From: Methanobacteriota archaeon
GTDB taxonomy: Archaea; Thermoplasmatota; Thermoplasmata; RBG-16-68-12
Direction: 5' to 3'
DNA: 64,000 nucleotides
NCBI GenBank assembly: GCA_947084985.1
Contig: CAMTUI010000023.1
Coordinates: 25,724 to 89,723, forward strand
The position numbers were made by a program, and so were the translations under genes. The notes under the pieces are model-generated. The model had not been told where the DNA came from. It saw only the letters and a list, made by a program, of their open reading frames with translations, and ran no database searches. Below, piece by piece: positions 1,290 to 42,534 of this stretch (position 1 is its first letter; the number at the start of each line of letters is the position of its first letter).

Positions 1290-1901
1290 TCAGGCGGACT
1301 CTAGGAGCCATACATCCGCGTGGTTTCGCAGCAGCATGCCGAGCTTCGTTCTCGTGATCCCGCCGCGCTTCAGCAGGCTCTCGAGCTTCGACTCCTCGGG
1401 CATCTGGACCTCGCCGTCGACCCATGCCGAGGCGACGGGCTCGTACCGCACGGGCTCACGGCCGACGCGCACGCGCGCGGCCGCGGCGTCCCGGAACGTG
1501 TGCAGCACGACGTGGACGGAGGTGACCGCCGCGGGTCGGACCTTGTGGTTGTAGTATGCTGCGACCTCCCGGTGGACCGGGGCGAAGGCGCCGACACGTT
1601 TCGCGTACTCCCGCCAGCCTCGTTCGAACGGGGACCGTGGGGTGGACATGCAATGCTCCGTCACCGGGCGAACCTCCTCGAACGTTGCGAGGATCGAATG
1701 CCCCTCCCGCAAGGCCTCGAGGAACTCATCCCACGTGGCGTACTCCTCGCGGGGCATCGCGTTCGCGAGGTTCTTCGCGAGGGACACGAGGTAGTTGTTC
1801 AGCCCGGAGACGCCCACCTTCGTCGCGATGTCCTCGAGGAAGAGGTGCGTCGCAATCTCGACGAACGGGTTGCTCTCGGGGATCCGCGTCTCCGCCGCCA
1901 T
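1290..1901 (-). CDS. Hypothetical protein, ~204 aa, paralog of the upstream gene (unknown function; possible V4R- or MEDS-like small-molecule-binding fold, unverified)
   Basis: Starts MAAETRIPESNPFVEIATHLFLEDIATKVGVSG..NLANAMPREEY. ATG at 1901-1899 overlaps the stop of the upstream gene (ATGA). The long six-frame ORF 1290..2390 continues out of frame through the neighbour. Confidence 0.6.
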   Translation of the reverse strand: MAAETRIPESNPFVEIATHLFLEDIATKVGVSGLNNYLVSLAKNLANAMPREEYATWDEFLEALREGHSILATFEEVRPVTEHCMSTPRSPFERGWREYAKRVGAFAPVHREVAAYYNHKVRPAAVTSVHVVLHTFRDAAAARVRVGREPVRYEPVASAWVDGEVQMPEESKLESLLKRGGITRTKLGMLLRNHADVWLLESA

Positions 1902-2521
1902 CAGCGCTCTCCCTTGATCCGAGCGCCGCGCATCACGAGGGCGTACACGCATTCGTAGTTCCGCAGGAGCGCCCGCATGTGCTCCTCGTTGATGTTGACC
2001 TGCGCGACGTTCTTGGAGGAGATCTTCGCCTCGCCGCTCCAACCCCGGGTCGCGAGGAGGAAGCAGACGAGCGAGTTGCCGGAGACCGTGATGTTCTTCG
2101 CGATCTCCTCCCGGAACCTCTCGTGGAAGACGCAGAAGTTGCAGACGGCGATGTTGTGGACGTTCTTGTTGTACTCGTCCGTCACGATCTTGTCCGCAGG
2201 ACTCATCCGGCCGACCGCGAAGCGCGTGCGGAAGATCGTGGGCACGTAGCAGCACTGCCGCATCGCGTACAGGTAGCCGACGACGTCTCCGTCGACGTCC
2301 GTGATCGCCATGTCCGTGAGCGGCGTGACCTCCCCCTCGATGCTGAACGCGGTTCGGCTCTCCCGCACGGCGACGTTGAAGGACGTCCAACCGAGGTAGG
2401 CCTCCTTGCCCATCCGGCTCGCGAGGTTGTCCCCGACCCGTTGCCAGAACTCCACGACCCCGTCGGGCCCGGCCTTCTCGATCATGTCCTCGATCAGGGA
2501 GGCGAGGGCGACGTCGATCAT
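1901..2521 (-). CDS. Hypothetical protein, ~206 aa, paralog of the downstream gene; Cys-containing C-terminal half
   Basis: MIDVALASLIEDMIEKAGPDGVVEFWQRVGDNLASRMGKEAY aligns with the N-terminus of the 1290..1901 product. Cys motifs RQCCYVP and VCNFCVFHE. Confidence 0.6.
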   Translation of the reverse strand: MIDVALASLIEDMIEKAGPDGVVEFWQRVGDNLASRMGKEAYLGWTSFNVAVRESRTAFSIEGEVTPLTDMAITDVDGDVVGYLYAMRQCCYVPTIFRTRFAVGRMSPADKIVTDEYNKNVHNIAVCNFCVFHERFREEIAKNITVSGNSLVCFLLATRGWSGEAKISSKNVAQVNINEEHMRALLRNYECVYALVMRGARIKGER

Positions 2522-2546
2522 GTGAGGGGACCTCGGGCCATGGGCA

Positions 2547-3335
2547 TCACACGAACGACGTGAGGACGGTTTTCATGTGCGTCCGCCATTCTCGGTCCGC
2601 CTTCTCGGCGACCGCGTCGCCTTCCAGGACGCGCAGCTTCTCGATGCAGAGGGAGACGAACCGATCCCAGTGAGCGGCCGTCATGTAGGGCGCCTTCGTC
2701 CCGACCTCGTTGTACGCCATCGTGACGATCTCTTCGACCTGCCCGGGCCCGAGGAGGGCGGAGAGCTTCGACACGATGTACCCTGCGATCTCCTTGTTCT
2801 TCCGGAACTCCTTCGTCTCCCCGAACTTCTCGACGAACAGGATACGGGTGAGCCGCTTCAGTTCGCCCGCGACGGCCTCGTCATAGGAGGCGAGGACCTC
2901 CGGTGTGATGGGTTTCGATTCGAACAGGTGCCGCACGACGATCGACGTCTTCACGACATTCGACAGGACGCCTTGCATCTTCGTGATCTCGACGGGCTTC
3001 GTCGTCAGGAAGACGAGGAACGCGCGGTCCCCGACGCCGGAGATGACCATCGTGCCCGCCTCGAACTGCTGGACGGACATCATCATGTTCTGCCCGCTCA
3101 GCTGGTTGCAGATGTGCGCGAGGTTCCGCTTCATCAGGTTGAGGAGGCGGTATTCGCGGGGATCGAGCTGATTCGGAATCGAGGACGCGAAGATCCGCCC
3201 GTCGACGCCGAGGAACATCGCGATGCCCAGGTCGTTCTCCTCCCGCGCACGGCCGAGCTCCGTCTCGAGGAGATGCTTGAGATGGCCGACCGTGGCGGCC
3301 CCCATCGTCTTGTCGACCTGGCCCGCGTAGGGCAT
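2547..3335 (-). CDS. Roadblock/LC7 (MglB-like) domain protein with ~130-aa C-terminal extension
   Basis: N-terminal half (GIAMFLGVDGRIFASSIPNQ...GDRAFLVFLTTKP) has the roadblock pattern and resembles the stand-alone roadblock at 25970..26335. The start abuts the KaiC-like gene stop at 3336. Confidence 0.55.
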   Translation of the reverse strand: MPYAGQVDKTMGAATVGHLKHLLETELGRAREENDLGIAMFLGVDGRIFASSIPNQLDPREYRLLNLMKRNLAHICNQLSGQNMMMSVQQFEAGTMVISGVGDRAFLVFLTTKPVEITKMQGVLSNVVKTSIVVRHLFESKPITPEVLASYDEAVAGELKRLTRILFVEKFGETKEFRKNKEIAGYIVSKLSALLGPGQVEEIVTMAYNEVGTKAPYMTAAHWDRFVSLCIEKLRVLEGDAVAEKADREWRTHMKTVLTSFV

Positions 3336-4226
3336 CTAGCCGCCCCGCTTCAGTCCGTACGAGTGGAAGATGATCTGGAGGGCTTCTTCCGGGGAGTAGT
3401 CGTAGTCCCAATGCTTCTGCATCCGCCTGATCCGCTCGATGATGCGGGGCGGCGCCTTCATCGCCTCCGCCGTCTTGATCGCTTCCTCGAAGACTTTCGC
3501 GTGGCTGCGCGTCTGTTCCTCCGGCAACGTCGCGGGGCTCGCCCGTACGACGATCCCGACGCCACGGGCGAAGAGGTACGGATACACGCCTTCCCCGTGG
3601 TGGACCGCGCGCATCTTCAGGAGCTTCAGGGTGCGGTTGAACGCCCCGCCGATTGGATAGTACTCCAAGTGGATCGCGCCGTCAGACAGGTAGATCGGCA
3701 GGAGGACATCCTCGCCGATCGTCTCGCCGGGACGGGCGTGCTCTTCGACCGTGCAGAGGACGACGCCGAGTTCCTTGAGCGTGTAGAACAGCTTGCCGAT
3801 CAGCTCGCGCTGCTCGAGCTTCTCCGCGGTGGCCCAGATGACCGGGGTCATCGGATCGATCACCACGCGAGTCGGGATGTTGTAGTCCGCGCGCGCCTTG
3901 ACGAGCTGAGGCAGCTGCTCCTCGATCATCTTCTTGAAGTTGCGGCCCTTGAGATGGATGAAGAAGAGGCTCTTCTCGTAGTACTTGCGCATGTCGAGGC
4001 CCATGAGGTCCGCCTCGCGCATGATCTGCTCCGGCGCCTCCTCAAGGGTCACGTAGAGGGCCTGCTCCCCGTTCTCGATGCCCTCCATGAGGAATTGGAT
4101 CGCGAAGGTCGACTTCCCGGTACCACTCGACCCGAGGATGACCACCGTGGACTTCGGCCAGAAGCCGCCTTCGATCAGGTCGTCGAGTCCAGGGATCCCG
4201 CTCGGCACTCTCTGTATGTCGGCCAT
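3336..4226 (-). CDS. KaiC-like RecA-superfamily ATPase (single domain) with ~60-aa C-terminal extension
   Basis: GIPGLDDLIEGGF motif, Walker A GSSGTGKST, Walker-B-like VVIDPMTPV. KaiC/RadA-like architecture. Confidence 0.8.
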   Translation of the reverse strand: MADIQRVPSGIPGLDDLIEGGFWPKSTVVILGSSGTGKSTFAIQFLMEGIENGEQALYVTLEEAPEQIMREADLMGLDMRKYYEKSLFFIHLKGRNFKKMIEEQLPQLVKARADYNIPTRVVIDPMTPVIWATAEKLEQRELIGKLFYTLKELGVVLCTVEEHARPGETIGEDVLLPIYLSDGAIHLEYYPIGGAFNRTLKLLKMRAVHHGEGVYPYLFARGVGIVVRASPATLPEEQTRSHAKVFEEAIKTAEAMKAPPRIIERIRRMQKHWDYDYSPEEALQIIFHSYGLKRGG

Positions 4227-17303: not shown

Positions 17304-17861
17304 TCAGAGGCGGAACTCGCCCCAGACGCGGATGAACGTATCAATCTGGTCCGGCGTCGCCAGCTCGTACGTCGCCATGATCCGTGCGATCGCCTTCGGG
17401 TCCGAGACCCGATAGCCGTGTTCCCTCGGCTCCGCGTGCTCGACCAAGCCAGCGCCCTGAATCTTCTTCAGGTGGTGCGACAGGGTGGACGCAGACACGG
17501 GCGTGTGCTCGAGGATCTCCTTGTGGGTCGCGGCTTCCCGCTCCATCAGGAACGCGAGGATGCGGAGGGGCACCGGCTGCCGCAGGAACGCGAGAATCTG
17601 CTTCTCCTGGTCAGTGAGGGCAGGCCGCTCGTCGGCGCCTCGGGGCATGGATCGCGGGTAGAACCGCTTGTATTCTCCGTCCATCGAGGACGCGATCAGC
17701 TCGTGCTTCTCGAGGAAGCGTAGATGGTAGTCGGCCAGGGTGATCGACAGGCCGAGCGCTCGTGCGACCTCACGCAAGTGGAATCCGGGGTTCTTCCGCA
17801 CGAAGTCGTACAGGTCCTTCCGTTTCTTGACCGCCAGGACCTCCTCGTCCATGGAGACCAC
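17304..17861 (-). CDS. ArsR-family-like wHTH transcriptional regulator (two wHTH repeats)
   Basis: Two helix-turn-helix segments (FHLREVARALGLSITLADYHLRFLEKHELI, ATHKEILEHTPVSASTLSHHLKKIQGAGLV). Confidence 0.7.
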   Translation of the reverse strand: MVSMDEEVLAVKKRKDLYDFVRKNPGFHLREVARALGLSITLADYHLRFLEKHELIASSMDGEYKRFYPRSMPRGADERPALTDQEKQILAFLRQPVPLRILAFLMEREAATHKEILEHTPVSASTLSHHLKKIQGAGLVEHAEPREHGYRVSDPKAIARIMATYELATPDQIDTFIRVWGEFRL

Positions 17862-34720: not shown

Positions 34721-35500
34721 TCAAGAGGGCTGAAGGAACGGACGAATCGATCGACCGACGCGCTGGCTGATCTCGATAATCCGCTTGACTTCGTCGTAAG
34801 TGAAGCTTCCACTTAAGCCTTTTTGCATCGCCCGGACATCACCGTTTTCATCCGTCGTCACGGTGAGGCGCGCGTCGGCCATCCGCCCCTCGTCGAGGTT
34901 CGGATCCACGAGCAGGACGTCCTTGATCTTCGACACGGTCACGCTCACCGGCCAGTGCTGGACGGGCAGCGGGAAATCGTCGCCGACGCCAAAGTTCTTC
35001 GCGGGGACGATTGTCGACCCGAGGGCCGCCGTGGCTGCGTACGAGCAGGCGTCGAACAAGTTTCCGTCGTAGTCGAGGACGTGAATGTCGATGAACATGA
35101 CCCAGACCTTCTCCTTCGGGATGATGCACATCTTCTTCATGTCAACCATCTTCGACTCGCGGATGCCGCGGTCGACGACACGGGCGAGCTCGATCGCTTC
35201 GGGCCGGGGCGGGCCCGCTTCGAAGGTCGGGCTGGCCATGGGGATGAGCTCGACGCTCGTCGACAGCACGCCCGAGTTTGGGGTGTCGGGATAGGGTTCC
35301 CCGACGGACATCTTGATGCCCACCAGGACGTCCGTGTTCCCGAGGCGCACGCGGGCGCTGCCTTCCGCGGTCTTCACGAAGGCCCGCTCCACGGTGACCT
35401 TGCGGGGCTCGTCGAGCGCGCGGCCGTCGAGCCGCTGGCCCGTCGACGCGAGGCGGTACACGTGGGCGCGCATGAGTTCCGAGACGACTTCTTCGGCCAT
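34721..35500 (-). CDS. rrp42: Exosome complex component Rrp42 (RNase PH-like)
   Basis: RNase PH fold, RLDGRALDEPRKV N-terminus. Confidence 0.85.
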   Translation of the reverse strand: MAEEVVSELMRAHVYRLASTGQRLDGRALDEPRKVTVERAFVKTAEGSARVRLGNTDVLVGIKMSVGEPYPDTPNSGVLSTSVELIPMASPTFEAGPPRPEAIELARVVDRGIRESKMVDMKKMCIIPKEKVWVMFIDIHVLDYDGNLFDACSYAATAALGSTIVPAKNFGVGDDFPLPVQHWPVSVTVSKIKDVLLVDPNLDEGRMADARLTVTTDENGDVRAMQKGLSGSFTYDEVKRIIEISQRVGRSIRPFLQPS

Positions 35501-36331
35501 TCAGATCCCCTCCGGGCCCAGGTCGAAGTCCGACGGGGCCGGTTCCATCCGCTCTCCTGACGGCGCGGCAGGAGGCGATTCCTTCAGGATGTCCTCAAGC
35601 GTCACGGAATAGCGGCGGCGGAGCGCGTCCCGCTGTAAGTCGTAGATGCGGTGCGCTGCGGCGATCGAAAGGTCCATCGCCTTCTGGAACTCCTCGTACG
35701 TCAGATGGCCGTCCATCTGCAGCAGGACGATCTCGCCGGTGCGGGGGACGATTGCCATGGGACAATCCGCGTCTCCGAAGTTGTCCTCGTCCTTGTTCAG
35801 GTCGAGGCACACGATGCCTTCGATTTTGCCGCTCGCGCACGAGGTGACGAGGTCCCGCATCGGCACGCCGGCATCGGCGAGGGCGACGCTCGCGGCCGTG
35901 AGGCCGGCGCAGCGGGTCCCGGCTTCCGCTTGGAGGACCTCGATGAAGATGTCCACGGAGGTGCGGGGGAACTGCTCCTTGAACACGACGGCGGAGAAGG
36001 CCTCCGAGATGACCTTCGAAATCTCGACGGACCGTCGGTCCGGGCCGGGTCGCTTGCGGTCGGAAACACTGAACGGCGCCATGTTGTACCGACACTGGAC
36101 GAGGGCGCGAGCCGGATCCTGGAGATGCCTCGGGTGGGCCTCCCGCGGGCCGTAGACGGCCGCGAGGACCTTGTTCCCGCCCCATTCGATGTACGCGCTG
36201 CCGTCCGCGCGTCGCAGAACGCCCGCTTCAATCCGGATCGGGCGCAGCTCGTCGAATTTGCGGCCGTCCAAGCGCCGGCCGGAGTCGTCGATCAATTTCA
36301 CTTGTTTCTCTATGTGCTCGATATCTTCCAT
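35501..36331 (-). CDS. rrp41: Exosome complex exonuclease Rrp41
   Basis: [44 protein letters not shown]. Confidence 0.9.
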
Positions 36332-36344
36332 GCATGTCACTTCC

Positions 36345-37043
36345 TCAGGTGGCCCTCGGCCCCGCCTGTCCTCGCTGCACCCGCTCGATCAGCTCGCGGA
36401 CCGCTTCCGTGAGCCCGTACGCCTGCGCGCGTTCCTCGATCAACCGGATCGCCATCGCGGCGACCGCCGCGTTGCGGTCCTCTCCATCCAGCCATATCCG
36501 ACCGTTCTGGCCGACGTAAATCTGGCAGCGTGTCATGTCCTTGATCATCGAGACCATGCTCCCCTGCTTCCCGATCACGCGGGGCACTTTCGTCGGCGAG
36601 ACCTCCATCAGCATGCCGCCCTGGAGGCGGCGCGCCTCGCGGTCCGCCATCGTGAGCTGGACCCGCTTGATCTCGTCGACGCTGAGGACATGGCAAAGGA
36701 TCGCATCGCCCACTTTCAAGTAGCGTGCGGTGTCGCCGAACTCGACGCGCCACGGGCTCTCCGTGGCGTGAAGCGGCGCGGGATAAGGGGAATTGATGTC
36801 CACGAGCCAGTGAGATGGACCGAAATCTACGATCTCGCCGACGATCGCGTCGCCCGGTTGCGGGATGTACCGCCCGGCGAGGGGGATGACGCTTACCCGC
36901 CCGTCGCGCTCGGTTCGAACCCCGAGCTGCGCCGCGAAAATCTGTCCGTTGTCGCTGAACGTCCCGGATCCCGGTTTCAGCCCGGGGCCGCCGACGGCTT
37001 CGCCTGGAATGACAATCGGGCGAAGCGAGCCGCTACTCTGCAT
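36345..37043 (-). CDS. rrp4: Exosome complex RNA-binding protein Rrp4 (S1 + KH)
   Basis: [10 protein letters not shown]-terminus, S1 domain, and a KH segment ([21 protein letters not shown]). Confidence 0.85.
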
Positions 37044-37119
37044 TGGTTTTGCTCACACACGCGGCGCGTCCAAACGACGGGGGCTACTTGAGGTTTTGGG
37101 TGCGCGGTGCGCGGAGCCT

Positions 37120-37860
37120 TCAGACCCTCTGGTCCGCCTTCAGAATGCGGGTCTCGAGGTTCCCCTTCGTCTTTGCGTTCAGCCGCTCGAGGAACTCGGT
37201 CTGCATCCCAGCGGGCATCTCGACCACGCCGATCCACGCTCCGCTCGGCGACCACTCCTCCTTCAGAATCGAGCCGAAGGACTTGATGTCACCATAGCAC
37301 TTCGCGCTGTCCTCCGCGCTGAGCTTGACCGCGATGCGGGTCTTCTCGAAGCGAATCGGGATGAGCGGGCGGAGGGCATCGAGGACGTCCTTCACCTGCT
37401 CCTCGAGGCCCTTGAACGGATCCACGTGGACCTTCGCCTCCTCCATCGCGATCTCGATCCGCTGCGGGGGATGCGGCGTGCCCGTCTGCGGGTTAATCGC
37501 GTTCGCCGCGATGTACTGGACGATCTGCTTGCGCTTCGCCTCGAGCATCTGGCGGCGCTGTTCCGTCGTGAGCTGGATCTCCCCGCGAAGGATGATCTGC
37601 TTCGCGACCGCGAGCGGTTCCGTGGTCCCGAAGAGCTCCGCCATCTTCTCCTCGGAGGCTTTCGAGCCCTTGTGGGCGTCTCGGAAGATTTCGTCGATTG
37701 CGAGCTCCCGCAACAGGTCGACGTCTTTGCCGTCCCGCATCCGCTGCACGGCGTCGGGCTTCACGAGGACTTCGAACTTCTCGCCCGCCTTCTCGATACG
37801 CGCGACCACATATTCCTTGAAGATATCGTCGCGACGGTCCGTGCGGAGCTCCTTCGGCAT
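37120..37860 (-). CDS. sdo1: Ribosome maturation protein SDO1 (SBDS family)
   Basis: SBDS N-domain ([19 protein letters not shown]) and a C-terminal ferredoxin-like domain. Confidence 0.85.
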
Positions 37861-37868
37861 GACCTCGC

Positions 37869-38594
37869 CTAGGACGCCGTCGGGAGCCGGCGGAGATACT
37901 CGCCGACTTCCGGCTCGCTGAGGCGGCGGAACTTCTCCCCTTCGACGATCAGGCCGACCTCGATCGCTCGGGCATCGAGCTTCTCCCCCTCGGATGCCTT
38001 CTGGAGCGCCTCGAAGCCGAGGAGCATCGCGTCGTCCTGGGCCATGCCATCCTTATACTTCTCCTCGAGGAGCTCCATCACCGCCTGACGGCCCTGCCCG
38101 ATGCTGCCCGCCTTGTACGACACGAGCGCGCCGCTCGGGTCCGTCTCGAACAGGTGGGTGCCGAGGTCGTCCACGCCGGCGACGAGGAGCGCGGTCCCGA
38201 AGGGCCGCACGCCGCCGTACTGGGTGTAGTTCTGCTTGTAGTCGCAGATCCGTTTCACGAGGATGTCCACGCCGATTCGCTCGCTGTACGTGACCTTGTT
38301 GATCTGAGCGACGAGCCTGGCGTAGTCGACCAGGACCCGGGCGTCGGCGACGAGGCCCGAGGTGGCCGCGCCGACGTGCTCGTCGATCTGGAAGATCTTC
38401 TCGATGGACGAGGTCTCGACGAGCCTGGACCCGATCTTCTTGTCGGCCAGGAGGACGATCCCGTTCTTGAACTTCAGGCCGACTGTGGTGTTCCCGCGAG
38501 TCACGGCGACGCGCGCGTATTCGACCTGGAACAAGCGACCGTCGGGACTGAAGACCGTAATCGCCCGGTCATAGGCCATCTGGCCCGGCTGCAT
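37869..38594 (-). CDS. psmA: Proteasome subunit alpha
   Basis: [21 protein letters not shown] alpha-subunit signature. Confidence 0.9.
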
Positions 38595-38626
38595 ATGATA
38601 AACCTCGCGGGCGCCTAATAAGGCGG

Positions 38627-38956
38627 TCACTTAAAAGGTTTGTTTTCTGACTCACGCGTTGGACGACGCCGCGGCGTGAGGAACTTCCGGGTCGCGGCGC
38701 GGATCGTGCCCGAGGTGCCAATCGTGACCAACCGTATGCGTTCCCCGCCGACCGTCTCGATGGCCCGGAGGGCCTGGATCGCCTCGTCCTTCTCGACGTT
38801 CGTCGTTCGGACGAGGCCTAGGGTCCCGTCGAACTCCACGAGCCAGAGGCGACCGGGTGCCGTGCGTAGGGCGGCCGACATCTCGGTCCGCTGGAACGAC
38901 CGGGGACCCTCGACCCGGATTGCGATGTAGCGGTTCCGCGGCGGCCTAGGGCTCAC
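38627..38956 (-). CDS. rnp2: RNase P protein component 2 (Pop5/Rpp14 family)
   Basis: RYIAIRVEG...LWLVEFDGTLGLVRT pattern. Canonical position at the head of the exosome superoperon. Confidence 0.6.
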   Translation of the reverse strand: MSPRPPRNRYIAIRVEGPRSFQRTEMSAALRTAPGRLWLVEFDGTLGLVRTTNVEKDEAIQALRAIETVGGERIRLVTIGTSGTIRAATRKFLTPRRRPTRESENKPFK

Positions 38957-39010
38957 GCTCGCGACAAGAGAAGGAACAAGAAAAAGGTTGGGGATAAAAA
39001 GAGGAGGAGG

Positions 39011-40147
39011 TCAGTGTACTTCGTCCACATCGGAGGAGGTCCGCACCGGACCTGTGTAGACCTCCTTGCCGAGCAAGGCTTTCGACCGGACGCCCGTGAT
39101 CACGAGGAGCACCCGGACCGTGTTCTGCAGACTGTCGTCGACGGTACAGCCCCAGATGATCCGCGCCTGGGGGTTGATCTTCTGTCCGACAACCTCCGCG
39201 GCCCGCTCCGCCTCGGACACCGTGAGGTCGGGGCCGCCGACGACGCGCACGAGCGCTCCGCGGGCGTGGGTCAGGTCGACCTCGCCAAGCAGCGGCGATT
39301 CGAGCGCCTCGTTGATCGCGTACTCGATCCGGTCCCGCTCTTCCTCGCTCTCGCCGATGCCGATCATCGCGACCCCGCCGCCCTTCATTATCGTCATCAG
39401 GTCGGCGTAGTCGAGGTTGACCAGACCGGGCTTCGTGATGATCTCCGTCATGCCCTTGATCGACTGCATGAGGATCTCATCCGCGACCTTGAAAGCGGCG
39501 TTGATCGGGAGCCGGGGGACGAGCTCGAGCAGCTTGTCGTTGTAAATCACGATCGTCGTGTCGCAGAACTTGCGGAGCTTGTCGAGGCCGGCCTCGGCGT
39601 TTTCCATGCGGATTCGGCCTTCCGACTTGAAGGGCATCGTGACCACGCCCATCGTGAGAGCGCCCTCTTCCTTCGCGACGCGGGCGACGTACTGTGCGGA
39701 GCCCGTGCCGGTCCCGCCGCCCAGGCCCGCGGTGATGAAGACGACGTGGGCCCCGCGGAGGAAATCGCGGATCTCCTCCTCGCTCTCGCGGGCCGCCTGC
39801 TCTCCTACCTCCGGCAGGGCGCCGGCCCCGAGGCCCTTCGTGAGCCGCTTCCCGATTAGGATCTTCTTTGCCGCGTGCACGGAGAGGAGGTGCTTCGCGT
39901 CCGTGTTCACGGCGCACATCTGCGCGCCCGTGACCCCGGCCTCCGCGCATCGGCTAATCGTGTTCGATCCGCCGCCGCCGCAGCCGACGATCTTGATCGA
40001 GACGTTGATCAGTTCGACGATCTTCTCGATCTCTTCGTCTTGTTCGGATACCTTCTTCGTCTCCGGCTTTGACTTCGCGGCCTGTTTCTTGTCCTGCTCT
40101 TCGGCCTCGGCGTGTCGGGCCAGAGCCTCGTTGAGAAGCGATTTCAT
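39011..40147 (-). CDS. ftsZ: Cell division protein FtsZ
   Basis: GGGTGTG tubulin signature, NTDAKHL, a C-terminal acidic tail. Confidence 0.9.
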   Translation of the reverse strand: MKSLLNEALARHAEAEEQDKKQAAKSKPETKKVSEQDEEIEKIVELINVSIKIVGCGGGGSNTISRCAEAGVTGAQMCAVNTDAKHLLSVHAAKKILIGKRLTKGLGAGALPEVGEQAARESEEEIRDFLRGAHVVFITAGLGGGTGTGSAQYVARVAKEEGALTMGVVTMPFKSEGRIRMENAEAGLDKLRKFCDTTIVIYNDKLLELVPRLPINAAFKVADEILMQSIKGMTEIITKPGLVNLDYADLMTIMKGGGVAMIGIGESEEERDRIEYAINEALESPLLGEVDLTHARGALVRVVGGPDLTVSEAERAAEVVGQKINPQARIIWGCTVDDSLQNTVRVLLVITGVRSKALLGKEVYTGPVRTSSDVDEVH

Positions 40148-40276
40148 TGTGCCATCCCATCCCGATGGAATCTGACGGACGGACGAATCGAGATGGGGGT
40201 ATTTAAAAGTAGTCATACACTTGTCTGACAAACCCCGCGTTGACATTCCGCGCGACCGGATCGCGCGGATGGACGG

Positions 40277-41053
40277 TCACAGCGCGGCGGCAGTCTTCGC
40301 GGACGAGAGGACGCTGACCCCGGCGTTCGTGATCTCGAACGGGTACACGGACTCGTCGTGGCTCGAGCCCTTGTACTTCTCCACGGAGATGAAGCGCTTG
40401 ATGCCGCCCTCGTCGCGGAGCTTGTGCAGGCGGATCTCCCCTCGTGCGAGGAACGCCTCCGGAGGGACCTCGCCCTCCTCCGGCAGCTCGAGGATCAGGA
40501 GGGACGTCAGCTTGGCCTCCGCGAGGTATCGCATGAACGACTGCGTCGTCACGGCTTCCTCGAACTCCCGCATGCAGAAGTACCGCAAGGCGGTCATCGA
40601 ATCGATCACGACGCGCTCGTAGTTCTTCTTCACGAAGAGGTTCTTGAGGAGCTGCTGCAGCGAGTGGACCGTGACCTCCTTGCTCTCGAAGTCCGGCGTC
40701 TTGCGGATCCGCTCGTTCAGGGCCCGCATCTTCGCAGGCTCCTCCTCCGTCGAGATTTCGAGGATCGGGGTGGGCTCGAAGCGCCGGATGTCCGAGTTCG
40801 CGTCGAGCACGTCGAGGTCGTCGAGGTTCCAGCGGAACGAGCGCATGTTGATCTTCAGCTCGTTCGGCGGCTCCTCCAGGGCGACGAAGAGGCAGCGTTC
40901 CCCGCCCTCCAGGCCTTCCCGCAGGAACTGCATCGAGAAGATCGTCTTGCCCGCGCCCGGCGGGCCCGAGAGGATGTACGGCCGCCCGGGCAGCAATCCG
41001 CCGTGGAGCATCTTGTCCATACCCGGGACGCCCGTTCGGATCTTGCCCGACAT
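40277..41053 (-). CDS. KaiC-like RecA-superfamily ATPase (258 aa)
   Basis: GVPGMDKMLHGGL, Walker A GPPGAGKT, VVIDSMTAL. Its ATG shares 1 nt with the stop of the upstream KaiC-like gene. Confidence 0.8.
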   Translation of the reverse strand: MSGKIRTGVPGMDKMLHGGLLPGRPYILSGPPGAGKTIFSMQFLREGLEGGERCLFVALEEPPNELKINMRSFRWNLDDLDVLDANSDIRRFEPTPILEISTEEEPAKMRALNERIRKTPDFESKEVTVHSLQQLLKNLFVKKNYERVVIDSMTALRYFCMREFEEAVTTQSFMRYLAEAKLTSLLILELPEEGEVPPEAFLARGEIRLHKLRDEGGIKRFISVEKYKGSSHDESVYPFEITNAGVSVLSSAKTAAAL

Positions 41054-42141
41054 CAGCGGACGACCTCCGGAGGCTTGGGCGGCGCCGTGGCGGGGGGCGG
41101 GGGCGGCACCGTGCCGAGGCGCTGCTTCAGGTCGGAGTCGCACGTGAGGGCGAGCTTCATCGCCTTCTGGTAGTGCCGCCGCTGGAAGTGGAGCATCGCG
41201 CGGGAGAGGGACACCTCGACGTCCTTTACAGGGATCTGCCGGCGGTGGGCCTCTTCGATCCCGCGCATGACCGCCTCGACCAGGTTCGAGACCTCGTCGA
41301 TGATCCGCGCCTCGAGGAGGGACTCGACCGGCTTCGGACCCTGCTGTCCGGTGTGGGCCTGGGCGACCGCATCGACATGGACGACCATGCCCTTCGACAC
41401 GATCGACACGGGGCGCATCTGGTCGTCGAACGACGATCCGCGGAACTTCTCGATCGACAACGCGCGGCGGATCATGCTGCCGTCGAGCCACTTGTGCAAC
41501 CGGATCTCCCCGCGAGCGAGGAAGAACTCCGTCTCGAGGGTGCGCCGATCGAGGTGCTCGGACACGATGAGGCTCGTCGCCTCGAGCTCGGAGAGAAACC
41601 GCAGGAACGATTGGATCAGGATGCGGCTGTCCTGGCCCCCCATCGAGAACATCTTCAGGGCGGTCATCGAATCGATGACGATCCGCTTGTACCGCTGCTT
41701 CGTCCGCTCGAGATGCCCGAAGAACTCCTGTTTGATCATCTTCTGCACGCTGTGCACGTTGACCTCGAGGGCCCGGATCTGCGACGACTGCCGGATCTCC
41801 GTGACCTGTTCCATGTCCCTCACGTCGAGGGACGTACCGACGTCGATCACGGACCGCGTGCGCTTGTGCGCGCGCACGTCCGGCGTCGCGTCGAGGATCT
41901 TGAGGCGGTCCAGGTTCCATCCGAACGAGGCCATGTTCGACTTCACGTCGATCGGTGGCTCGTCCAGGGTCACGAGCAAGCAAGGCTCCTGCTGCTGGAG
42001 GCCCTCCAGGAGGAAGTGGGCCGCGAGGATCGTCTTGCCGCTCCCCGTCGGACCCGAGATGATGTATGGACGGGCGGGTAGGAGGCCCCCTTGGAGCATG
42101 GCATCCAAACCCGCGACGCCGGTCTTCACGCGATCCATCAA
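41053..42141 (-). CDS. KaiC-like RecA-superfamily ATPase with ~110-aa helical, Pro-rich C-terminal extension
   Basis: GVAGLDAMLQGGL, GPTGSGKT, IVIDSMTAL. C-terminal ...PPPPPATAPPKPPEVVR. Confidence 0.8.
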   Translation of the reverse strand: MMDRVKTGVAGLDAMLQGGLLPARPYIISGPTGSGKTILAAHFLLEGLQQQEPCLLVTLDEPPIDVKSNMASFGWNLDRLKILDATPDVRAHKRTRSVIDVGTSLDVRDMEQVTEIRQSSQIRALEVNVHSVQKMIKQEFFGHLERTKQRYKRIVIDSMTALKMFSMGGQDSRILIQSFLRFLSELEATSLIVSEHLDRRTLETEFFLARGEIRLHKWLDGSMIRRALSIEKFRGSSFDDQMRPVSIVSKGMVVHVDAVAQAHTGQQGPKPVESLLEARIIDEVSNLVEAVMRGIEEAHRRQIPVKDVEVSLSRAMLHFQRRHYQKAMKLALTCDSDLKQRLGTVPPPPPATAPPKPPEVVR

Positions 42142-42234
42142 ACGGCCTGCCGCGACCGCATCGACCCGGTCCCACCACGATAAACGTTGCGTCGTGAGAA
42201 TCAGGCCAGGGTCGTCCGCACTCCGAGGGAATCC

Positions 42235-42258
42235 GGTTAACCTTGAACAAGGTTAACT
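42235..42258. promoter_or_regulatory. 24-bp near-perfect palindrome GGTTAACCTTG-AA-CAAGGTTAAC about 95 nt upstream of the tandem KaiC-like operon
   Basis: Arms are reverse complements (10/11). Lies within a 390-bp intergenic region. Confidence 0.4.
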
Positions 42259-42534
42259 CGTTGCGGTCGCGTGAGTCGACCGCATGGCCTCGATGGAAAA
42301 CGCCGCCTGTCCGAGCCTCGGCCGGATAGCGGGGGATGGAAATCCCGGGTCCGAGGCGTGTCCTCGCAGCCCTTTTGAACCATCGATCTCCGGGTGTCTC
42401 ACCGGGGACCTGGGCGTCCCGAGCTATGAGCCCGACGGGATATCCTGGCTACCCCACCCCGCTGCGTGGCGGCGGCGCGGAAGGCGGTTGACCGTCCGCA
42501 TTGGACCGTGTCGGATAAACCTATCGCGCGGCAT

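Follow-up and report, generated by a model that had tools for sequence, protein, structure and literature searches.

Why do two KaiC-like ATPase genes stand directly upstream of the cell-division gene ftsZ in an archaeal genome, and does this position say anything about what they do? The question is raised by a stretch of 64,000 nucleotides (nt) from a Methanobacteriota archaeon (Thermoplasmatota; Thermoplasmata; RBG-16-68-12; assembly GCA_947084985.1, contig CAMTUI010000023.1, positions 25,724 to 89,723), hereafter the window, where the genes that we call kaiL (41053-42138) and kaiS (40277-41053) are followed on the same minus strand by ftsZ (39011-40147). An earlier note on this DNA had proposed heteromeric KaiC-like rings that might be co-regulated or co-transcribed with the division gene. 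We favour, with moderate confidence and on sequence grounds, a reading in which kaiL-kaiS is an operon whose two genes each specify one half of a hetero-oligomeric "split KaiC" ATPase and would lie beside ftsZ by inherited gene order, ftsZ being a separate transcription unit.

The kaiL open reading frame (ORF) encodes 361 amino acids (aa) from the ATG at 42138, or 362 aa from an alternative TTG at 42141, and that of kaiS encodes 258 aa, with the kaiL stop codon TGA and the kaiS ATG having one nucleotide in common in the TGATG at 41051-41055. Both translations match the Pfam KaiC family (PF06745, cut-off 26.6 bits), KaiL over model positions 1-228 of 231 (137.7 bits, E = 5e-40) and KaiS over 1-229 of 231 (153.3 bits, E = 8.5e-45), and they are 45% identical to each other. 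The reading frames, the Pfam assignment and the junction all agree with the initial description of two single-domain KaiC-like ATPases of 258 and 362 aa sharing one nucleotide. Relatives were collected in a scan with one genome per GTDB species, which returned 54 loci, all from Thermoplasmata, with KaiL identities of 43-89%. Wherever both gene ends could be read, the junction consists of a 4-nt (ATGA or GTGA) or 1-nt (TGATG) overlap or of a gap of 0-5 nt, the widest gap being one of 22 nt in the distant locus L053. Furthermore, kaiL and kaiS are neighbours in 55 of the 55 loci where both were detected and are never separated. A conserved overlap or minimal gap of this kind is a signature of translational coupling, and kaiL-kaiS is a genuine, conserved and translationally coupled two-gene unit, from which KaiL and KaiS would be made in equal amounts.

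The two proteins differ at the active site in a manner that is constant across the clade. KaiL carries the Walker A motif GPTGSGKT, the catalytic pair D59-E60, the Walker B motif IVIDS and a K231-F-R233 segment, and KaiS the Walker A motif GPPGAGKT, the catalytic pair E-E, the Walker B motif VVIDS and a K-Y-K segment with a Lys at the arginine-finger position. From the alignments with hits in the Protein Data Bank (PDB) and from established knowledge of KaiC, we take these positions to correspond to E77/E78 and K224/R226 of KaiC. Walker A, Walker B and the catalytic acidic pair are kept in the 51 KaiL and 55 KaiS orthologues. Indeed, over an identity range of 50-99%, DEPP is found in 51 of 51 KaiL orthologues and K-x-R in essentially all of them; among the KaiS orthologues EEPP occurs in about 50 of 55 and K-x-K (K-Y/F-K) in about 52 of 55. 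The two proteins thus hold stable, reciprocal, paralogue-specific active-site signatures, and their ATP sites differ, that of KaiL combining a D-E pair with an Arg finger and that of KaiS an E-E pair with a Lys at the finger position.

The two halves also occur in one chain, in natural L-S fusions, which we found in four metagenomic proteins of 529-537 aa (P0090, P0095, P0100 and P0104) and in locus L003 (2215-3828). All have an L-type N-terminal domain (DEPP, K-L/F-R) followed by an S-type C-terminal domain (EEPP/EEPV, K-Y-R or K-F-K), with a basic linker of about 35 aa in place of the KaiL C-terminal module; their genes have other neighbours, and ftsZ is not close by. The nearest solved relatives, 2DR3 and KaiC, are hexamers, and by homology a ring complex would be expected for KaiL and KaiS. 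Its likeliest form would be two stacked tiers resembling the CI and CII tiers of KaiC, the alternative being a single ring of alternating subunits; the L-then-S order of the fusions mirrors CI-CII and so favours the two-tier assembly. The distinction would matter for catalysis, as both signature deviations would come together in one composite site in an alternating ring, whereas stacked homo-rings would have one deviation per tier. As for the heteromeric KaiC-like rings proposed in the earlier note, their heteromeric character is indirectly backed by the constant adjacency, the signatures and the fusions, while the rings themselves remain an expectation from homology.

KaiL is further distinguished by a C-terminal extension of about 105 aa, in fair agreement with the 110-aa helical, Pro-rich extension first ascribed to the larger ATPase. 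Full-length KaiL was modelled with AlphaFold2 on a 46-sequence alignment, which gave a RecA/KaiC core with low confidence for residues 87-125, an insertion relative to KaiC. Foldseek searches with this model returned PH0284 (2DR3, template-modelling score 0.81) and the KaiC CI domain. The extension is predicted to be a three-helix bundle (residues 270-342; 41113-41331, minus strand; mean predicted local distance difference test (pLDDT) of 92 when the domain was modelled alone with AlphaFold) followed by a proline-rich tail, PPPPPATAPPKPP (41068-41109, minus strand), which is predicted to be disordered with low pLDDT and is conserved in the clade according to the alignments. No fold match to the bundle was found in the PDB (best Foldseek E = 2), and Pfam gave a single sub-threshold hit and nothing credible; an MIT-like identity, which was considered, gathered zero supporting matches and was dropped. 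On the basis of these models, bundle and tail look like a docking module for a partner, and KaiL subunits would display them on the complex in such a role.

The extension and its PPPPP tract are kept in all close KaiL homologues (61-98% identity), which come from uncultured Thermoplasmata of soil, sediment and groundwater labelled "Thermoplasmata archaeon", "Methanobacteriota archaeon" or "Euryarchaeota archaeon RBG_16_68_13". An exhaustive HMMER search at E <=1e-30 recovered 131 cluster representatives, and the same helical module is present in some of them, namely in the distant homologues P0126 and P0128, where zinc ribbons follow, and P0144 and P0146, where very long Pro/Ala-rich tails follow. 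The architecture of a KaiC domain, a helical module and a tail is consequently not unique to the clade. Dozens of homologues of about 40% identity (P0141-P0218) have an N-terminal KaiL-type domain and then 300-1000 Pro/Ala-rich, low-complexity residues with no Pfam domain.

Could KaiL and KaiS instead be independent homo-hexamers that are adjacent only through a recent tandem duplication? Their 45% identity, with each protein among the nearest relatives of the other, and the homo-hexamers seen in crystals of single-domain archaeal KaiC-like proteins, for instance PH0284 (2DR3, six chains), speak for this explanation. The duplication is however old, since orthologues reach down to about 50% identity, yet tight coupling is found everywhere; in addition, the paralogue-specific signatures are fixed and gene fusions exist. 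We consequently hold this explanation to be unlikely.

A second possibility, which we regard as decidedly unlikely, is that the pair is a RadA-paralogue heterodimer (aRadC or Rad55-Rad57-like) working in recombination or repair with no KaiC-type ring. Relatives are named "KaiC/GvpD/RAD55 family" or "RAD55 family ATPase" in databases, SSO2452 is among the PDB hits, RNase HII and endonuclease V are encoded a few genes further upstream, and Rad55-Rad57 is a precedent for a paralogous RecA-like heterodimer. However, in sequence and fold alike the best PDB matches come from the KaiC CI domain and PH0284 (E of about 1e-30), whereas SSO2452 (a Sulfolobus RadA paralogue) and RecA are far weaker, at about 1e-13 to 1e-18. 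The scores against the NCBIfam equivalogs for RadA(sms) and RadB are 17-27 bits, far under cut-offs of 172-403, and the upstream repair genes belong to other transcription units, beyond a transfer RNA (tRNA) gene.

The same comparisons place KaiL and KaiS outside the other named families that were examined. Both align best to KaiC CI rather than CII, and they score 106.2/113.2 bits against 408 and 74.5/69.2 against 546 with the circadian KaiC equivalogs NF006799 and TIGR02655, which expect a two-domain CI-CII chain. The ArlH/FlaH equivalog gave 22.8 and 18.2 bits for a cut-off of 215, with no archaellum genes nearby, and both ATPases fall under the cut-offs of the NCBIfam archaeal KaiC models thermo_KaiC_1, KaiC_arch_3, KaiC_arch_4 and ArlH. 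No KaiB-like gene was found within 7 kb on either side in the 54 loci, where the neighbours are SCP2, the tRNA, ftsZ, Pop5 and psmA. A known defence system was considered with PADLOC and rejected, its sole match being a weak P-loop hit to mads_8.

We then come to ftsZ itself. The gene (378 aa; TIGR00065, 400.2 bits for a cut-off of 295.2; Pfam PF00091 Tubulin and PF12327 FtsZ_C) starts with an ATG at 40147, which is 129 nt past the kaiS stop, close to the 130 nt given at first for the downstream ATPase gene. It heads an unbroken run on the minus strand (34721-40147) with Pop5, psmA (proteasome alpha), SBDS, Rrp4, Rrp41 and Rrp42, a run that we take to be the classical archaeal exosome/proteasome gene block. 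When window proteins were searched by tblastn in the other loci, the prevalent order was endoV / amidohydrolase-RNaseHII-SCP2 / kaiL-kaiS / ftsZ-Pop5-psmA. The earlier note had suggested comparing the kaiC-kaiC-ftsZ arrangement in related archaea, and the result is divided: the kaiL-kaiS half is always kept, whereas, of 51 informative loci, 37 have kaiS and ftsZ as immediate neighbours, also on deep branches (L047 for instance), 11 have them parted by 0.5-2.2 kb, and the remaining 3 show no ftsZ within at least 3 kb downstream. The unit without a downstream ftsZ is seen in L003 (the fused gene), L040, L041 and L053. Besides kaiL|kaiS, the junctions that are never broken are RNaseHII|SCP2 (46 loci) and ftsZ|Pop5|psmA (31-36 loci), and insertions fall only at transcription-unit boundaries. 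Where the inserts after kaiS were annotated, which does not extend to the large ORFs of L049 and L056, they proved to be a membrane-anchored subtilase, a cytidine-deaminase-like gene and, on the opposite strand, a winged helix-turn-helix (wHTH) gene of the HVO_0163 type, and no division-related function was found among them. The wHTH gene encodes a double-wHTH regulator and is convergent directly after kaiS in some distant genomes, namely in L038 (8829-9347), L040 (2624-3145) and L041 (8818-9339); the window has a homologue of it at 17304-17861 (minus strand), 23 kb from kaiS.

What the kaiS-ftsZ gap contains is equally informative. A promoter block at 40191-40222 (minus strand) consists of a TTGTCnGACAA palindrome, GTATGACTAC and then TTTTAAATA (40191-40199), which resembles a B recognition element and TATA box, and the 37 aligned kaiS-ftsZ gaps give the near-invariant consensus tTGTCnGACAnnnGTATGACTAsTTTTAAATA. 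In the loci with insertions this block sits directly upstream of ftsZ whichever gene precedes it. A leader element with the invariant GGGATGGGATGG (40144-40155, minus strand) is located just before the start codon, at 5 nt in the window, and is conserved in all loci, the most distant included; the element GGGATGGGAT stays constant from locus to locus while its frame with respect to the start codon changes, which points to a signal at the nucleotide level rather than to coding. Block and leader persist throughout the clade, down to about 62% FtsZ identity. These features indicate that ftsZ is transcribed as a separate unit from a conserved promoter of its own. The proposal that kaiL-kaiS might be co-regulated or co-transcribed with ftsZ is not supported, in view of a promoter that lies in the gap and travels with ftsZ, of the 11 interruptions and of the 3 losses. 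Because no T-run of five or more, that is no oligo-T terminator, is present in the 129-nt gap, some read-through from kaiL-kaiS into ftsZ may nonetheless take place.

Would KaiL and KaiS then be a dedicated regulator of FtsZ-based division, a timer or an assembly/disassembly factor that uses the KaiL tail to dock on FtsZ itself or on a partner in division, with a functional adjacency and some read-through? The adjacency of kaiS and ftsZ appears ancestral to the clade, the gap has no oligo-T terminator, and KaiL bears a C-terminal module of a protein-docking kind. Against this, the conserved ftsZ promoter follows ftsZ past unrelated inserts, the inserted subtilase, cytidine-deaminase-like and wHTH genes have no relation to division, the four loci named above keep kaiL-kaiS with no ftsZ downstream, and the literature searched gave no link between KaiC-like proteins and FtsZ. 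The entire neighbourhood is syntenic, so the kaiS-ftsZ adjacency carries little information. We judge such a regulator to be very unlikely, and the hypothetical division link of the earlier note, which came from gene order, is countered by the ftsZ promoter and the pattern of insertions. Rather, kaiL-kaiS would stand beside ftsZ through an inherited order within a housekeeping block (RNase HII, SCP2, initiator tRNA-Met | kaiL-kaiS | ftsZ, Pop5, proteasome alpha, exosome).

There are points against the split-KaiC reading with a separate ftsZ. The replacements of Glu by Asp in KaiL and of Arg by Lys in KaiS are conservative, so that each protein may be fully active on its own as a homo-hexamer. 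Moreover, an adjacency retained in 37 of 51 loci over a gap with no T-run leaves room for a functional or read-through link with ftsZ.

How the pair itself is expressed is suggested by the region upstream of kaiL. A promoter-like block at 42179-42203 (minus strand) comprises TGATTCTCA (42195-42203), CGCAAC and GTTTATC (42179-42185), and the pattern TGATTCTCA(C/G)G(A/T)CGnAAC-nTTTATC recurs in 34 of 34 aligned regions upstream of kaiL, at a distance of about 45-70 nt from the ATG. This block is likely the kaiL core promoter with an adjoining TGA-N3-TCA site. It lies between kaiL and a palindrome, GTTAACCTTG-AA-CAAGGTTAAC (42236-42257), and is far more widely conserved than the latter, being present with or without it. 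The palindrome is real and unique in the window, with none expected from shuffled sequence; it had been described as 24 base pairs (bp) long and about 95 nt upstream, and it measures 22 bp, with perfect 10-bp arms and a 2-bp centre, at 94 nt upstream of the TTG at 42141 (97 nt from the ATG at 42138). It occurs in about 18 of the 34 aligned orthologous regions and is missing from about half. Four loci (L018-L021), in which it stands about 100-120 nt upstream of kaiL, have the same substitution in both arms (GTTACCCTT...AAGGGTAAC), and this joint alteration indicates that the symmetry itself is maintained. The change may reflect selection for symmetry or pairing, or else a shift of binding specificity in that sublineage.

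The earlier note had also suggested looking for the palindrome elsewhere, and it proved to be widespread at promoters in this Thermoplasmata lineage. Its family consensus is GTTAACCTT-N4-AAGGTTAAC (9 + N4 + 9), with half-sites AACCTT/AAGGTT spaced by 10 bp, and a scan of metagenome contigs for this consensus gave at least 120 copies (loci L058-L177). The counts that follow are among the matches listed. About 8 contigs are kaiL loci and the others, of high GC content (0.54-0.71), come from other genomic regions; two of the flanking proteins belong, by exact-sequence look-up, to clusters that carry the name Thermoplasmata archaeon or Methanobacteriota archaeon. Nearly all of the sites are intergenic, and with gene ends taken from a gene call based on GC content at third codon positions, 35 of them lie between two 5' ends, 47 between a 5' and a 3' end and 5 between two 3' ends, that is 82 facing gene 5' ends for 5 facing 3' ends only. 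The palindrome fronts at least 35 unrelated gene families at a family-specific conserved distance, including HflX, diphthamide synthase, a UbaA/MoeB-like protein, MoaB, Ku, a metallophosphoesterase and creatininase, and also another KaiC-like ATPase and a divergent tubulin-like protein.

A hexamer RTGG(C/T)C, also written RTGGHC in the flank count, accompanies the palindrome at 26-27 nt from its end or ends in 94 of 197 non-redundant flanks, for 2.3 expected. In the window the hexamer stands on both flanks, 26 nt from either end of the palindrome, as ATGGCC towards the tRNA gene (42284-42289, plus strand) and as the mirrored cTGGCC on the opposite side (42204-42209, minus strand). Since its position relative to the TATA box or start codon of each gene varies by family, the hexamer belongs to the palindrome module and not to the gene start. 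Several other explanations were examined and rejected: a leaderless start codon at RTGGCC, as only 14 of the 94 hexamers open a coding-like ORF; a directional centre, the N4 orientation being uncorrelated with the RTGGCC side; a terminator, only 5 sites lying between two 3' ends; and a miniature inverted-repeat transposable element or other mobile element, since the spacers are not the same from locus to locus and orthologous promoters keep their sites.

From this distribution, the palindrome is not a kaiC-specific operator. The dimeric-transcription-factor geometry that had been attributed to it fits the 10-bp spacing of the half-sites and the covariation of the arms, but an operator dedicated to kaiC does not fit the 35 or more families. 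The module would be either the site of a lineage-specific global factor contacting about 86 bp or an autonomous bidirectional promoter. Archaeal control regions of the Ptr2 and Ss-LrpB type likewise have dimer-like half-sites 10 bp apart that lie upstream of or overlap core promoters, and multi-box Lrp-type regions resemble the present one in having accessory motifs, here about four helical turns off each side; unlike those operators, the palindrome fronts many unrelated families. No mention of the motif and no matching described operator was found in the literature searched. In L091 (about 1514-1750, plus strand), a protein of about 78 aa (…TTKAIRGRPYLYFWHYEE…) without a Pfam hit is encoded divergently from HflX, its start lying 14 nt from a copy of the palindrome; it is conserved, with a counterpart at the equivalent position in L066, L080, L100, L125, L141, L167 and L173. 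It is pure speculation that this small basic protein is a candidate for the palindrome-binding factor.

We regard as highly improbable a further combination, in which a split two-tier KaiL/KaiS with asymmetric ATP sites would be a slow timer or checkpoint on FtsZ-ring assembly, docking through the helical and Pro-rich KaiL tail and with its locus in a lineage-wide GTTAACCTT-N4-AAGGTTAAC/RTGGCC regulon; if true, such a scheme would amount to an archaeal cell-cycle device that is Kai-like but not circadian.

The region upstream of kaiL also holds a gene, although its 390 bp had been taken as non-coding. An alignment of this region across species drew attention to a conserved tRNA-like stretch with two inserts, which corresponds to an initiator-type tRNA-Met(CAT) gene at 42327-42463 (minus strand) with exons at 42463-42425, 42395-42374 and 42340-42327. 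Its introns are located at 42424-42396 (29 nt, position 37/38) and 42373-42341 (33 nt, position 59/60). Splicing in silico of the 29 nt after position 37 and the 33 nt after position 59 left 75 nt that ARAGORN recognised as tRNA-Met(CAT), whereas the unspliced gene was not detected in the raw window by ARAGORN or by Rfam at the gathering threshold. The spliced molecule has an A1:U72 pair and three G:C pairs in the anticodon stem, which we take to be initiator features. The gene is found at the same place in 43 loci, mostly with both introns; L002, L038 and L039 have the canonical intron only, while L049 and L050 have no intron at all, and the latter two confirm the exon junctions exactly as predicted. 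Multi-intron and non-canonical-intron tRNA genes are best known from Thermoproteales. As in the archaeal tRNAs with several or non-canonical introns reviewed in PMC4090602, the present gene combines the canonical 37/38 intron with a second one in the T-loop at 59/60, with gain or loss among relatives, and it differs from them in belonging to soil Thermoplasmata, in being an initiator tRNA and in being overlooked by standard tools.

Another KaiC-like gene of the window is found at 3336-4226 (minus strand, 296 aa, Pfam KaiC E = 1.6e-44), followed by two tightly packed ORFs on the same strand (2547-3335 and 1901-2521, minus strand) with no Pfam match; together the genes of 1901-4226 look like another KaiC-like module.

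How does the proposed split KaiC compare with known systems? With cyanobacterial KaiC, KaiL and KaiS share the RecA-superfamily domain, Walker A and B, the catalytic acidic pair and the Lys/Arg pair acting in trans, and the fixed order of the two domains of KaiC has a counterpart in the single-chain fusions among KaiL/KaiS relatives. They differ from it in that the domains are encoded by separate genes and are both CI-like, in the lack of kaiA and kaiB nearby, and in the additions to KaiL, namely the helical and Pro-rich C-terminus and an insertion of about 35 aa between the 'ILDA' strand and Walker B. Archaeal single-domain KaiC-like ATPases (PH0284/2DR3, PH0186, ArlH, Haloferax CirA-D) have the same architecture, fold and archaeal distribution, with several paralogues per genome, and kaiL-kaiS is a new lineage-specific member of this well-known group, from which it stands apart as a subfamily by its obligate L/S pairing, its reciprocal signatures and the C-terminal module of KaiL. 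Archaeal KaiC-like ATPases have reportedly been proposed by Makarova, Galperin and Koonin in 2017 to form a 'signal transduction hub', and the KaiL/KaiS complex would most likely be an ATP-driven regulatory or signalling hub. As to ftsZ, haloarchaea have a cdrS-ftsZ2 arrangement in which a small regulator gene is co-transcribed with ftsZ2. The present locus is similar in that kaiL-kaiS sit directly upstream of an ftsZ on the same strand; in contrast to cdrS-ftsZ2, the ftsZ gene has its own conserved promoter, the upstream genes encode ATPases and not a DNA-binding protein, and the breaks in synteny argue against co-transcription.

For these genomes, it follows that the adjacency to ftsZ should not be taken as a link to division. 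More unexpected in this stretch are the initiator tRNA gene with its two introns, the module of palindrome and RTGGCC, and the leader element of ftsZ. Two introns hide an essential initiator tRNA from standard finders, and the palindrome module, together with the ftsZ promoter and leader, provides concrete cis-elements for the study of transcription and division control in uncultured soil Thermoplasmata. If the reading that we favour is true, the split KaiC would be a natural system with its two tiers as separate polypeptides bearing distinct catalytic signatures, and it would help to dissect the division of labour in KaiC-like rings and the roles of the abundant KaiC-like ATPases of archaea.

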